Below are positions 46,418 to 63,891 of a DNA stretch of 64,000 bases, piece after piece. The DNA comes from an uncultured bacterium (GTDB taxonomy: Bacteria > Chlamydiota > Chlamydiia > Chlamydiales > SM23-39): positions 608,001-672,000 of the forward strand of contig OY970323.1 in the NCBI GenBank assembly GCA_963716985.1, in the 5' to 3' direction. Position numbers and translations under genes: made by a program. How positions within the stretch are numbered: position 1 is the stretch's first letter; every line of letters begins with the position of its first letter. The notes under the pieces are model-generated. The model saw only the letters and a program-made list of their open reading frames with translations, had not been told where the DNA came from and did not search any database.

Positions 46418-46500
46418 GGGGGCGTCGCATAGCGGCAATTGCAAGGGACTGTAAATCCCTCGGTCTATGACCTCCGTTGGTTCGAGTCCAACCGCCCCCA
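46418..46500 (+). tRNA. tRNA-Tyr(GTA)
   Basis: GGGGGCG/CGCCCCC acceptor stem, CTGTAAA loop, long variable arm. Confidence 0.95.
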
Positions 46501-46508
46501 AAAAACCA

Positions 46509-46530
46509 CCCCGCAAATGCGGGGTTTTTT
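46509..46530 (+). terminator. Intrinsic terminator after tRNA-Thr/Tyr
   Basis: CCCCGC-AAAT-GCGGGG-TTTTTT. Confidence 0.8.
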
Positions 46531-46628
46531 GTGGACGGAGGAAGCCAATAATTTGGCTTCCGTTTGGGACTCGAAGGGAGGTACTCCGTCGACAAACAAG
46601 CGGTAGGCCCGGAGTCCAACCGCTTCCA
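46531..46628 (+). repeat. Structured tRNA-linked repeat, copy A
   Basis: GGAAGCCAA-TAAT-TTGGCTTCC hairpin, GACTCGAAG, ends GAGTCCAACCGCTTCCA. Confidence 0.75.
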
Positions 46629-46867
46629 ATTTTTATAGACAAAATTCTCTCAAAAAACCAAGCCCTAAAAAAACCCGAAAAGTGCGCTTCAAAATCCCGA
46701 ATGGGACACTGGTGGGACAGCAGTTATTACGAGTTTTCAAAGATAAAGGCGTTAAATGAATCGCACTTTTACTCAAAGGGTGCACATACTCATCTTATTC
46801 GGCTTGATAAATGGCTGCTGTGTCGATATATAAATAAATTGATCATTAGAAAGAATGTAGGGAATAA

Positions 46868-48586
46868 ATGACTACTCATGGTGTTCCAAGTCCAAATGAA
46901 CCATCTTTTTTGATAATTAATTCGTCTTCTCAAATAGATTTGTCCAGAGCACGTGTTGCCTACGAGGGCGCGATTAGCAACCCACGAGAGCGACATGCTG
47001 AAGTGGGTATTCTGTTACCCAATGGGAAGGTTCAATATGCCAGACTTGGCAAGAATGAAGAATATGGGCCGCATCGTGTAGGGTCGGTTACAAAGACATT
47101 CACGACATTTTTAGCCTTAAAACTTGCTAAAGATGGGGTATTGCCTCAAGGTTTGAAAACGCGTTGCGGCGACCTTCTTTCAAAGGAAATTCTTGCAAAA
47201 ATATTTGAAGATCCTGCGGCTGCGGAAAATATGACATTAGAGCAGCTTCTTTCCCATACAGCGGGTCTTGAATTAGATGATCATAGTCGCCAACAAGAAA
47301 TTCGTTCTTCTACAATGCATGAGCGTTTTCTACAGGAGGGCCAAGAAGGCCGTAAATTTAAACATACAAGTCAACCTGGAGATGGAATTGGTTCTTATAG
47401 CAATGCTGGGGTTGCGGTTGCGGGTTGGATGTTAGAAGTTGCATATAATAAATATAACGGAAAAGAGACGCCGGTCATTCCCTTTTCTCAGATCATGAAA
47501 AGAGAATTATTTGAAGGAGTTTTTGGATTGTCTGGGCCTTTTATTGGGCCTGCACCTTCTGAGGATATCATCCAGACTCCTGCCGGTGGTATGACATCAT
47601 CCATCGGAGATCTTATGAAAGTTGCCGCCCGTCTTCAGCAAGGAGAAGCTTCTCTTGAGCATTTCTTTGGAAGCGGTTGGCAAAGGGCCATGTTAACGCC
47701 CCGTGATCTTCTACAACATTATGGATTAGGATGCCATGCCAATGCTTCTTCTATTGAACATGCGGGTCTGACTCAAGAAAAATTTGGGGATGAGGCGCGG
47801 GACACTACTGCTTTGGTCGTTTTTCCTCTAGGTCCTGAAAAAGCTGGTTTAGCCGCGATGTGCGATTCAAGTGCACTTGGCCCCGCGCTACAAGAACAGA
47901 GATTTCTCAACGCTTTGAAAAAAAGTGCTGGTATTTCACATATAGAAGAGCCAGAACCTATTTACGATTTGGATTTCTTTTGCCCAGAATCACCGAACGC
48001 TATTCTCTTCCACGGAGATGTTTATCTGATTACGGATGTAGATCCTTTCGCTCTAGTTCCTCCAGAGAGGATTATCTGTACTCGCAATGGGATGAAACAT
48101 GTGCTTGTCCGAGATGCTTCTATCGATAAAAAGGATATCCGTGGGTATCGAGATGAACATGGAAAACCATGGGTTGTCATTTCAAGGGAAGATGGGCGCA
48201 AAGCAATTTATAGCGATTATTGTTTGCTCACCGAAGTGGTAAAGACAGGGGATTTTGCCTTAGCACAACCGGATTTGGTTAGTGTTCAATCATTACAAGG
48301 AGAGTATCGGGATACTGAGACGTTAGGAGAACATCCAATTTATTTCTTTACTGAAAAAAATGGGCACCTTTACATGCGAGAGCGTAATGATAAAATTAGT
48401 TATCCTTGTCTATACATTCCGGACGATGTGGGTGGAGGAGGAGCATGGGTAGTTAGCAATCCAGATGGTCGAAAGATCAAATTTCGATTTCCTAAAAATC
48501 CAGATAGCGACTTCCTTGTAATCACAGATATTCTTATGGGTGTTCCTCAGTTCCCGCCGAAAAGTAAAAGAACTCGTCGCGTATAA
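46868..48586 (+). CDS. Serine hydrolase, beta-lactamase class C-like family
   Basis: GSVTKTF (SxxK), LLSHTAGL, YSN, HAG. Confidence 0.85.
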   Translation: MTTHGVPSPNEPSFLIINSSSQIDLSRARVAYEGAISNPRERHAEVGILLPNGKVQYARLGKNEEYGPHRVGSVTKTFTTFLALKLAKDGVLPQGLKTRCGDLLSKEILAKIFEDPAAAENMTLEQLLSHTAGLELDDHSRQQEIRSSTMHERFLQEGQEGRKFKHTSQPGDGIGSYSNAGVAVAGWMLEVAYNKYNGKETPVIPFSQIMKRELFEGVFGLSGPFIGPAPSEDIIQTPAGGMTSSIGDLMKVAARLQQGEASLEHFFGSGWQRAMLTPRDLLQHYGLGCHANASSIEHAGLTQEKFGDEARDTTALVVFPLGPEKAGLAAMCDSSALGPALQEQRFLNALKKSAGISHIEEPEPIYDLDFFCPESPNAILFHGDVYLITDVDPFALVPPERIICTRNGMKHVLVRDASIDKKDIRGYRDEHGKPWVVISREDGRKAIYSDYCLLTEVVKTGDFALAQPDLVSVQSLQGEYRDTETLGEHPIYFFTEKNGHLYMRERNDKISYPCLYIPDDVGGGGAWVVSNPDGRKIKFRFPKNPDSDFLVITDILMGVPQFPPKSKRTRRV

Positions 48587-48650
48587 TAGCCTCGAGAGTC
48601 CCTGAGTTGGTGCAATGTTAATGCTAGCAAAACTTTTGAAAAGTCTACAA

Positions 48651-49022
48651 TTATCTCGCAAGGGCAGCAATTGATGCACGGGATGGCGAATCACCAATCA
48701 TCGTGCTTCCATGTTCTTGATGAGAAGAAGGAACAATGGAAATATAGACATCCTGCCCTAAATCGTTTAGAAATCTCAATAAACGTTCCAGAGAAAAACT
48801 TTTTAGGTATCCTCTCAATAGCAAAGATACTTTAGGTTGATCGATTTTTAAGATTTTGGCTACTTTAGATTGAGTCAATTTCTTTTTCTTAATGATTTTA
48901 CTGATTTCCCAAGCAAGTTGTGATTTAGCAAGAGCTTTTTCTGGATTTGGAACACCTAAATCAGCAAAAACATTCCCAGAGCTTTCTTCATATTCAATAT
49001 CTTTATATTTTTTTTTCTTCAT
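48651..49022 (-). CDS. XRE family HTH antitoxin (HigA-like)
   Basis: SSGNVFADLG, LTQ..VAKIL.IDQPKVS, FSLERL. Confidence 0.9.
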   Translation of the reverse strand: MKKKKYKDIEYEESSGNVFADLGVPNPEKALAKSQLAWEISKIIKKKKLTQSKVAKILKIDQPKVSLLLRGYLKSFSLERLLRFLNDLGQDVYISIVPSSHQEHGSTMIGDSPSRASIAALAR

Positions 49023-49039
49023 AACTTCTCCTCATGAGA

Positions 49040-62537: not shown

Positions 62538-62555
62538 TGTACAATTAATTGGACA
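62538..62555. promoter_or_regulatory. Probable TA operator palindrome
   Basis: TGTACAATTAATTGGACA near-perfect palindrome upstream of toxin. Confidence 0.5.
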
Positions 62556-62915
62556 TTTTTAAAAGGTCAAATTTTCTGCTTTTGGGATCATCATATTTTT
62601 GATTGATTCCGCGGGGGTGGGAATATTTTCAGGAAAAGTACCGCCAATTTCTTCAATTGCTGAACGCGCTGGGAAACTTGGAGTTTGGGTTACGTTTGAG
62701 GCTCGAAGAGGGGAGCTCCGTCGACCAACTGGCGGGAAGATTTCCGGAGTCTGACCATCCCCAGCTTCAATAGCAACAACAACCGGCAATTTTTCATAAT
62801 TTCGTCATTTGCTATCCACTCCGAGGGAATCAAGCCACTCGATTTTTCGATTCTTTCTGGTTCAGCGAAGGCGCTCTCTTTCGCGGCCTGTTTGGTAAAT
62901 GATTCTCTCCAATAT

Positions 62916-63299
62916 TCATCCCAAGCCGTTAGAAAAAAATGCAGAAATAGCATCTTTTTTCGTTTTTCCCTCGGCGACTTTCAGAACAAGCTCTTCTAAG
63001 TCAGTTTCTTGATAATCAAACGGACAGTTGTTCATGGAAAGAAACATCAATGCAGACACAAGAGCGGTCCTTTTATTTCCATCGATAAAGGGATGATTTT
63101 GGCAGATATGAAAGAGATAAGCTCCCGCTTTATCGGGAAAGGTTCTGTGTAAGTATTGTCCATCAAAGGTGCTGAGCGGTTGCGAGATCGCAGAGAGCAG
63201 GAGATTATGGTCACGAAGGCCTGTTTTTCCTCCATAACGTTTAATCTGGTCTTCATGAATTTCTAGAACATCTTCCAGCGTTAGAAAGTAGATTTCCAT
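62916..63299 (-). CDS. doc: Doc (death-on-curing, Fic family) toxin
   Basis: YGG..GLRD..LL.SA, HPFIDGNKRTA. Confidence 0.92.
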   Translation of the reverse strand: MEIYFLTLEDVLEIHEDQIKRYGGKTGLRDHNLLLSAISQPLSTFDGQYLHRTFPDKAGAYLFHICQNHPFIDGNKRTALVSALMFLSMNNCPFDYQETDLEELVLKVAEGKTKKDAISAFFSNGLG

Positions 63300-63303
63300 A
63301 CTT

Positions 63304-63540
63304 TTACTCAGCTAGGCGTTTTAGAGTACGTCCATATTTCTTATTGATCTTCTTCAATGAAGTGGCAAAGTGGTGTTTTTGCGCTTTACTCTTCAGTGGG
63401 GTAATGATTATGGAAATGCCATCGGGTGTAGAAATTTGGAGTAGTGTCTCACTATCAATTCCTAGTAGATCAAGAATAGGTCGTTCAATGATAAGGGCGT
63501 AACTATTTCCGTGTTTGGTGAGTTTTTTAGTAACTGTCAT
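63304..63540 (-). CDS. AbrB/MazE family antitoxin
   Basis: KKLTKHGNSYALII, terminal LKRLAE; GGAGG SD. Confidence 0.88.
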   Translation of the reverse strand: MTVTKKLTKHGNSYALIIERPILDLLGIDSETLLQISTPDGISIIITPLKSKAQKHHFATSLKKINKKYGRTLKRLAE

Positions 63541-63618
63541 GAAAGCCTCCTGATTATGTGCATACTTATGTATATACATTGTAGACACGGAGTGAATTCC
63601 TAGTCAACTATTTAATGT

Positions 63619-63794
63619 GGCACTGGTGGGACAGCAATACCTCGAAGCTATCAAAAACACTCAACAGATAACAATAATTATTTTGCCACAAGATATTTGT
63701 TTTTAGGTTGATAAGCATTGAGAATGACTGTGGAAGATTGGATTTCGACTGACTGTAAATTCCTCGGTCTTCAGGCTTTCGTTGGTTCGAATCC
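63619..63794 (+). repeat. att-like end, diverged copy: arm plus variant tRNA-Tyr 3' half
   Basis: CACTGGTGGGACAGCAAT.. homologous to 49469..; GACTGTAAATTCCTCGGTCTTCAGGCTTTCGTTGGTTCGAATCC. Confidence 0.82.
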
Positions 63795-63795
63795 T

Positions 63796-63891
63796 AAACG
63801 TAAGCCAACTACTTGGCTCACGTTTGAGACTCGAAGTGAAGCACCAGGCAGGGTGCGAGCTGGCGGGATTCCCGGAACCCAACAGCCTCCA
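63796..63891 (+). repeat. Structured tRNA-linked repeat, copy D
   Basis: AAGCCAACTACTTGGCT, GAGACTCGAAGTGAAGCACC..GGTGCGAGCTGGCGGGATTCCCGGA. Confidence 0.82.

Follow-up and report, generated by a model that had tools for sequence, protein, structure and literature searches.

How did more than 17 kb of small packets of gene cargo come to be stacked behind one tRNA-Tyr gene in a region with no integrase open reading frame (ORF)? The locus lies in a chlamydial genome (G000; a single 2.07-Mb contig, 99.5% complete), in a 64,000-nucleotide stretch (G000:C1:608,001-672,000), hereafter the window, where it occupies positions 46,418 to 63,891. Feature positions are window coordinates unless prefixed G000:C1; labels of the form G### denote genomes of the comparison set and L### individual loci, G001 being a congener of the window genome. 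A preliminary description made from the letters alone offered two alternatives, stacked relics of two or more integrase families or an integron-like cassette platform serviced in trans. Our analysis favours the first. With a probability of roughly 0.8, the region is a site-specific accretion array, that is, a stack of integrase-less island relics left by two element families, one using a large serine recombinase (LSR; type B junctions) and one using a tyrosine integrase (type A junctions).

The tRNA-Thr/tRNA-Tyr pair that anchors the array is found behind the same core genes in relatives, and the downstream content was different in each locus seen among those listed. When the last 18 nt of tRNA-Tyr were searched for in 46,401-67,000 with up to five mismatches, nine sites were found on the plus strand and none on the minus strand, against 0.57 chance sites expected from the genome-wide rate. 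They comprise the gene and eight fragments (46,611, 49,639, 49,772, 57,294, 59,308, 61,469, 62,746 and 63,874), all co-oriented and separating the cargo, where the preliminary description had counted at least seven. A ninth, more decayed 3' copy ends at 61,624, and a fragment spanning the anticodon to the T-loop lies at 63,751. Type C repeats account for five of the fragments, and there the cargo units are not closed by recombinase sites. The three junction types proposed earlier are real as recurring sequences, the third of them being a repeat and not an attachment (att) site. The array continues about 2.5 kb past the window, through an amidohydrolase gene, a gene without a name and YqeY; the B/C junction that it reaches there, at about 66,380-66,460, is decayed.

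Type B junctions are the attR sites of an LSR family common in Chlamydiales, and they encode the cut-off C-terminal tail of the enzyme. All three window sites read, on the minus strand, WGRLD.FRTF.W followed by a stop 16-23 codons further on. The full LSR, seen in the locus of a relative, carries PF00239, PF07508 and PF13408 and runs antisense into the tRNA-Tyr 3' end. With an LSR query, matches at E 1e-5 were obtained in 101 of 300 genomes of the order; distant matches at 25% and many relics consisting of the 3' end are counted in. In 29 of 31 loci the LSR 3' end overlaps or abuts the 3' end of a tRNA or transfer-messenger RNA (tmRNA) gene on the opposite strand (11 Tyr, 8 tmRNA, 6 Asn, 3 Met, 1 Leu), the other two loci being cut by contig ends. 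A B site 2.5-16.4 kb beyond the LSR was clear in 13 of 20 extended loci. The exact 25-nt type B pattern occurred in 56 stretches of the genome collection, mostly chlamydial by title, and the relatives and named records with the same junctions are likewise mostly Chlamydiota.

The complete LSR elements of relatives measure about 7-16 kb. Most of the ten listed carry a primase/helicase, a SpoVG-like gene and cargo such as methylases, Schlafen and RhuM (18 proteins scanned). In L133, L143, L144 and L147 the SpoVG-family gene adjoins the primase/helicase gene, and its product is a candidate regulator or directionality factor. Nine units were flagged for an LSR 3' end on their left side. A B site closes every one of them, and five are complete elements; many LSR matches in the order keep just the 3' end bearing the att half-site. 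The window holds such a remnant at 57,312-57,414 (tblastn E 1.4e-5; profile E 6e-4), the sole trace of the family in the genome. The earlier statement that no integrase ORF is present stands for the region, with this relic to be added. A subfamily with about 52% identity targets tRNA-Asn (L149, L150, L125-L131); two of its loci that were extended showed no B motif, so its attR must differ.

The tail encoded at type B sites shows a coding signal. At 97 of 105 distinct B sites, 10 or more codons past the motif are free of stops in the LSR frame, compared with 45 and 47 in the other two frames; the W+3 residue is hydrophobic in 90%, only the second codon position being fixed. Both forms of the enzyme's end also occur in database proteins. 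Out of 120 LSR proteins, five end in the tail as one natural ORF and 80 in tRNA-antisense sequence, while 35 fell outside both classes under a rough rule for ends.

Type A junctions are the attR sites of a tyrosine integrase, with pairs of arm sites. Lambda-type integrases are the model for our reading of such paired direct repeats, which by analogy would be arm-type sites. Across loci, tRNA fragments that start at the anticodon stem have a direct-repeat pair 115-135 bp upstream, in several sequence variants, and L212, L225 and L227 hold complete elements that have an integrase and whose left and right arm pairs match. The variant seen in the window (TGGGACA type) occurs in 21 of 301 genomes, and in L053, L091, L153 and L175 its left arms are followed by PF00589 integrases. 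A second tRNA-Tyr reported by ARAGORN at 49,575 is a type A attR and not a gene; Rfam makes no call there.

Type C is no cassette boundary: it is a repeat linked to tRNAs and arises behind their 3' ends with cargo or without. In the window genome it is also found behind tRNA-Leu and tRNA-Phe, and in relatives behind Tyr, Leu, Phe, Ser and tmRNA genes, where tandem copies sometimes have no cargo with them. Searching by pattern returned 26 matches in Patescibacteria, Chlamydiota, Elusimicrobia and others, 25 of them with a same-strand tRNA upstream; a direct 3' copy with at most four mismatches was present in 14 of the 24 that could be parsed. The inverted copy agrees with its own tRNA at 5.6 of 7 letters and with other tRNAs at 3.8 (maximum 4.2 in 500 shuffles; n=22). 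In 24 sequences, whose kin are not independent, the first hairpin is 97.9% paired, with compensatory changes at four of eight pairs. Only the two proximal window copies fold clearly better than shuffled sequences (z -6.6 and -4.2), the others having z of -2.0 to +0.2. Our best guess for the origin of the repeat is a local copying event templated on the tRNA end. We considered and rejected an att site of a third recombinase, as no enzyme adjoined the repeat in the loci seen and many different tRNAs precede it, and also TwoAYGGAY or another Rfam family, as no Rfam match besides tRNA reached the gathering score (E up to 1) and a preprint, in the portion drawn on here, gave no tie to tRNAs. A tRNA-Leu 3' fragment with a full type C repeat lies directly behind a protein gene at G000:C1:63,950-64,085, distant from the tRNA-Leu gene. 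A different hairpin-rich repeat follows tRNA-Tyr fragments in L222 of G276 (9,560-9,680 and 14,590-14,720), a second type of tRNA-linked repeat.

With the junctions so identified, the window resolves into six units, of which only two have matching ends (Table 1). Unit 1 (46,629-49,657) has type A ends on both sides, without a clear inverted arm pair of the kind seen in complete left ends, and unit 3 (57,312-59,325) has LSR ends on both sides. Unit 2 ends in a B site at the right and has no LSR left end; unit 4 keeps a B right end only; unit 5 has lost its A right end, its homology to the congener stopping at the arm site; and unit 6 keeps a decayed A right end only. There are no integrase or transfer genes inside the units. 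The distal junction and the next two genes are common to the congener at 89%, and the outer part of the array is accordingly old.

Packets of cargo do travel, since the identity of cargo proteins to their counterparts in other genera (G013, G230 and G318) is 75-94%, where flanking core proteins reach 43-62%. The modules stand in other orders in G001, G013 and G230, and at tRNA-Tyr, arrays of small units without integrases and with both A and B junctions are a recurrent feature across the order. Unit 3, consisting of the LSR 3' relic, the hydrolase gene, DinD or its remnant and the B site, is also present in L063 of G318, with both ends and no LSR body; its DNA identity of 82%, compared with 61% for a core transporter, suggests that the LSR-less form may have moved. 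In the comparison of relatives proposed in the preliminary description, modules are shared and reordered, and few of the shared segments end at att or arm sites. What moves together is for the most part an attR and the gene beside it, in keeping with a decay of elements that starts at the integrase end.

Enzymes that could act on these sites were sought in the window genome itself. A search with the PF07508 profile gave no match, and a profile of the chlamydial LSR family run in six frames over the whole genome recovered the window relic and no intact LSR. PF00239 matched a single 205-aa, IS607-like resolvase. Eleven tyrosine recombinases were matched, six of them among tRNA-Met fragments at 858-970 kb; no TGGGACA arm pair was found within 2.2 kb of any of the eleven, and three are accompanied by TGGACCA pairs at tRNA-Met. 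The earlier suggestion to look for genomic integrases whose ends match the junctions returned neither an intact LSR nor an integrase beside type A arms, and a resident enzyme acting in trans was rejected, there being no LSR and no type A-matching integrase in a genome 99.5% complete. The array is inert in this genome today.

We propose the following course of events. Two families of small integrative elements would insert repeatedly at tRNA-Tyr, each newcomer landing beside the tRNA gene and pushing older elements outward. For LSR elements, the crossover point would be close to the tRNA 3' end and fall within the final codons of the element's own recombinase gene. On integration the LSR body at attL would come to end in tRNA antisense sequence, and the native tail, FRTFDW plus an amphipathic stretch, would be moved to attR, giving a type B site. 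Tyrosine-integrase elements would cross over at the anticodon, and their attR (type A) would be left with an arm-site pair and a long tRNA fragment. Each element would later lose its integrase end by deletion, the attR-proximal genes (toxin-antitoxin pairs, DinD, Schlafen and others) being retained. A newly arriving element of one or the other family could, by excision between its own attL and an older attR, take the units between with it, and its enzyme could act on units 1 and 3, both ends of which are kept. A more far-reaching version of this scheme, which we put forward tentatively and consider doubtful, is that Chlamydiales share a two-enzyme cassette exchange at tRNA-Tyr, in which miniature integrase-less units with serine-type or tyrosine-type ends move between genera on recombinases borrowed from passing elements; the swap of the LSR tail would then be a directionality switch (tRNA antisense when integrated, the FRTFDW helix when circular), with stacked arrays rebuilding a full tail at inner junctions.

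Several observations weigh against the accretion of relics from these two families as described. Six of the 20 extended LSR loci have no B site and one has a decayed site only; two of these loci lie at contig edges and two belong to the tRNA-Asn subfamily. In L151 the LSR is at a Met-type site and the B site is Tyr-type. Within FRTFDW, 49 of 69 codon changes are non-synonymous, so that the motif itself may be kept as DNA, and the set of B sites is biased by the exact-pattern search and drawn from related genomes that are not independent. For type A, a search of 40 further regions yielded no complete element in which TGGGACA arms at the two ends accompany an integrase, and the cognate enzyme of the type is consequently deduced from sister arm types; the right end of L222 is masked and the arm types of L330 are mismatched. 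Finally, among 43 cargo matches of at least 350 bp, six end at an attR or arm site and two start inside one, the remainder ending at gene or locus edges. Excision was not observed either: contigs from four public DNA runs showed no circle and no credible joint skipping a unit, though at a depth of 2-4 they had no power to reveal one.

The strongest competitor is a maintained cassette platform, in which integrase-less units with intact ends are selected, exchanged among chlamydial lineages, and excised and inserted one at a time by recombinases that transient elements provide in trans. Such a platform could account for the paired ends of units 1 and 3, the copy of unit 3 in G318, the many LSR matches in the order reduced to the 3' end with its half-site, the regular closure of left LSR ends by B sites and the difference in gene order between the window genome and its congener. 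The ends of four of the six window units are nonetheless unmatched or lost, and the left and right arm types are often unlike within a unit. IS66, a group II intron and miniature inverted-repeat transposable elements (MITEs) have inserted in cargo and beside att sites, and to the lack of a cognate enzyme in the window genome can be added that no LSR was found, with one query, in G001, G013, G318 or G319. Unit 3 is the one shared example, and a larger element could have carried it along. We regard a maintained platform as improbable for the array as a whole; one limited to units 1 and 3 is still compatible with the data, and the weaker form of the idea, that visiting elements can pick up units, survives.

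A true integron or an array resembling CALIN (a cluster of attC sites lacking integron-integrases), whose cassettes with folded attC sites are moved by IntI, is very improbable, although the small units of one to three genes, mostly on one strand, with toxin-antitoxin pairs and separated by repeats, do recall one, as do the folding of type C and a group II intron behind a stem-loop. The best IntI match in the window genome by TIGR02249 scores 85 bits against a cut-off of 265, a simple pattern for the attC core (RYYYAAC...GTTRRRY) found no pair at any of six junction regions, and the sites of types A and B, being double-strand att sites, belong to other families, which already contradicts this reading. 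With no IntI, attC or cognate enzyme, and with matched ends in two of six units, the second alternative of the preliminary description is not upheld, and the first, relics of at least two integrase families, is. That the repeats are assembly artefacts or chance matches can be dismissed, since despite two frameshifted cargo genes and short-read contigs that differ at the hydrolase break, the strand asymmetry of 9 to 0 and identical junctions in dozens of genomes already refute it, and contigs from public runs (depth 2-4; one run may be the source sample) cross several junction parts without differences.

Table 1. Anchor genes, junctions, cargo and later insertions of the tRNA-Tyr array (window coordinates)
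Feature	Position	Strand	Basis
tRNA-Thr(TGT), core neighbour	46332..46406	+	tRNA calls
tRNA-Tyr(GTA), anchor and target of both recombinase families	46418..46500	+	tRNA calls, comparative loci
Type C repeat C1: terminator-like hairpin, inverted tRNA-end copy, hairpins, direct 3' copy	46501..46628	+	
Left arm-site pair of type A, left end of unit 1	46702..46720	+	
Unit 1 cargo: serine hydrolase, PF00144 family, 572 aa	46868..48586	+	family match
Unit 1 cargo: RelE/HigB-type toxin (PF05973) and helix-turn-helix antitoxin (PF13744)	48651..49390	-	family match
Type A attR: arm-site pair (49,468-49,486), spacer, tRNA-Tyr fragment from anticodon stem	49468..49657	+	
Type C repeat C2, best-preserved copy (folding z -6.6)	49658..49789	+	
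Unit 2 cargo: HEPN-like gene (lead only), pieces 49,909-50,197 and 53,063-53,594, split by IS66	49909..53594	+	
IS66 (tnpA, tnpB, tnpC) containing a 102-bp MITE (50,211-50,312)	50198..53062	+	
Unit 2 cargo: Schlafen/AlbA-ATPase, 452 aa	53542..54900	-	family match
Group II intron, reverse transcriptase gene 55,622-56,725, interrupted by a 190-bp MITE (56,708-56,897)	54975..57209	+	
Type B attR J3: LSR C-terminal tail (FRTFDW and 16 codons) fused to tRNA 3' fragment	57225..57311	-	
LSR gene 3' relic, ~35 codons, one in-frame stop, left end of unit 3	57312..57414	-	
102-bp MITE at edge of LSR relic	57416..57517	.	
Unit 3 cargo: alpha/beta hydrolase, two ORFs in the assembly	57533..58343	-	
Unit 3 cargo: DinD, two ORFs in the assembly	58376..59228	-	
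Type B attR J4 with LSR tail	59221..59325	-	
Unit 4 cargo: choloylglycine-hydrolase family (N-terminal nucleophile, Ntn) enzyme and outer membrane protein beta-barrel	59419..61313	-	
Type B attR J5 with LSR tail	61385..61486	-	
Type C repeat C3	61487..61624	+	
Unit 5 cargo: HI1419/HI1420-type toxin-antitoxin pair	61953..62511	-	
Type C repeat C4, decayed	62665..62763	+	
Unit 6 cargo: Doc-family toxin and partner antitoxin	62916..63588	-	
Type A attR, decayed, common to congener G001	63617..63795	+	
Type C repeat C5, truncated	63796..63891	+	

The cargo genes lie on both strands, and the names first given to them agree with family matches except for the HEPN-like gene, which had no Pfam match. 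Against HEPN clusters its Atlas features score 0.90-0.91, the recognition value staying under the threshold of the tool, and the identity is a lead only. The earlier inventory had the cargo right and lacked IS66, the group II intron and three MITEs, which together make up 5,206 of 17,474 bp (~30% of the span). IS66, of which the genome has six near-full copies, is flanked in the HEPN-like gene by an 8-bp target duplication. The group II intron is inserted directly behind a small inverted repeat (54,920-54,975) upstream of the Schlafen gene; the matching site in G013 is without it, and its other full copy in the window genome adjoins tRNA-Ala. At the break in the hydrolase gene of unit 3, short-read contigs of two runs differ from the window, and the break may be an assembly error or an allele. 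A short motif follows directly after tRNA 3' ends at 46,629-46,645, 49,790-49,806 and 61,625-61,645, and also in L024, L025, L156 and L330. It recurs at left ends of integrase-less units with differing arm types and was absent from five complete tyrosine elements examined; an LSR half-site was rejected as its identity because the motif also precedes tyrosine arm pairs.

Related junctions occur elsewhere in the window genome. Tyr-type junctions (three B, a partial C and a partial A) are found on the minus strand at G000:C1:1,939,403-1,944,639, and one of type A at G000:C1:1,995,536-1,995,670, in both cases with no tRNA nearby; they are probably parts of the array moved by rearrangement, or else secondary sites. 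A second tandem array, at tRNA-Met (G000:C1:858,000-970,100), has five 3' fragments and six tyrosine integrases, three of them with TGGACCA-type arm pairs. B-type junctions stand behind tmRNA at G000:C1:748,000-758,400, and a displaced set of tmRNA fragments lies on the other strand at G000:C1:1,738,700-1,743,000. The genome has three tRNA-anchored arrays, from named recombinase families.

The array is a known mode of collecting genes and not a new integron-like machine. It shows how environmental chlamydiae, which are obligate intracellular bacteria, gather defence and stress genes. Worth following are the joint occurrence of two att families with a tRNA-linked repeat in a single array, the signal of coding in the tail and the unit that is shared without an LSR. 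For the tail swap, an idea put forward for DsiB in 2011, there is now a coding-constraint signal together with natural tailed and untailed proteins to compare, and it bears on the choice of direction by serine integrases without a known directionality factor. Type C is a cross-phylum tRNA-linked repeat without an Rfam model. A caution also follows for annotation: integrase-less arrays mimic integrons, and tRNA callers report type A sites as genes.

We found no account of such arrays at chlamydial tRNA-Tyr in the literature covered, which mostly left out subscription journals and excluded supplements. The closest parallel is with the Dehalococcoides ssrA islands, which according to the sections of McMurdie et al. 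2011 (PMC3146451) drawn on here stand in tandem behind a tRNA-like 3' end. Their serine integrase DsiB, a CcrB-like LSR, is encoded on the reverse strand with its 3' end always overlapping attL, and its gene is proposed to be complete on the circle only; 15 islands without an integration module are read there as possible cis-mobilisable elements (CIMEs). The antisense LSR gene of chlamydial relatives likewise has its 3' end over attL in the 29 loci described above, the window retaining a relic only, and the attR direct repeat carries the missing 3' piece of the gene in 13 of 20 loci and at the three window sites. In contrast to those islands, as far as the same sections describe them, the target here is tRNA-Tyr, with tmRNA, Met, Leu and Asn also used by the family; the six-gene DsiA/ParB/Mom module was not seen in the ten elements, which have the primase/helicase and SpoVG-like gene instead; and a second, tyrosine family is interleaved and the tail shows a coding-constraint signal. 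The match of the chlamydial LSR to CcrB-like proteins is below cut-off. Compared with CIMEs, as named in that source, the units here are alike in lacking integrase and transfer genes while keeping att sites, and by analogy could leave with a neighbour; they differ in that most keep attR only, with matching ends in two of six.

Integration that alters or cuts the integrase gene has other precedents. The Islander paper of 2014 (PMC4383910), in the portion used here, reports tandem arrays and integrases crossing attP, such as that of phage Mx8, and states that no targeting of tRNA genes by serine integrases was known; an excerpt of an archaeal review (PMC8371274) describes SSV-type integrases as extending across attP. 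Those are tyrosine enzymes, whereas here a serine enzyme swaps its last 20-30 codons only. For type C, the E. coli tRNA-linked repeats (TLRs) are described in the extract of PMC8144298 considered here as short and non-coding, with an 18-19 bp copy of a tRNA 3' end, one to several in tandem, and as having no known function. Type C resembles them in lying behind tRNA genes and ending in a tRNA 3'-end copy, and differs in its inverted copy of the local tRNA end and its conserved, covarying hairpin; homology to TLRs or RtT was not detected, no Rfam match except tRNA reaching the gathering score.

Among chlamydiae, the island of Protochlamydia UWE25 (PMC548262), as outlined in the part of that paper drawn on here, is a modular 100-kb region at tRNA-Gly with an internal copy of the repeat and a conjugation system. 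It shares with the present array a modular build, a tRNA anchor and an environmental chlamydial host, and differs in its large size and its conjugation system; that part of the paper does not distinguish junction families. The comparison with Prochlorococcus tycheposons made in the preliminary description proved apt. In the portion of the preprint considered here (bioRxiv 10.1101/2020.12.28.424599), tycheposons combine an integrase, a primase/helicase and cargo, with tyrosine recombinases in 910 of 937 elements, and as they integrate one after another, partial tRNAs, broken integrases and cargo stay behind; an intact element is absent from most islands. The complete chlamydial elements similarly carry an LSR, a primase/helicase and cargo at a tRNA, the integrase and replication genes being present in the elements of relatives and not in the window units.

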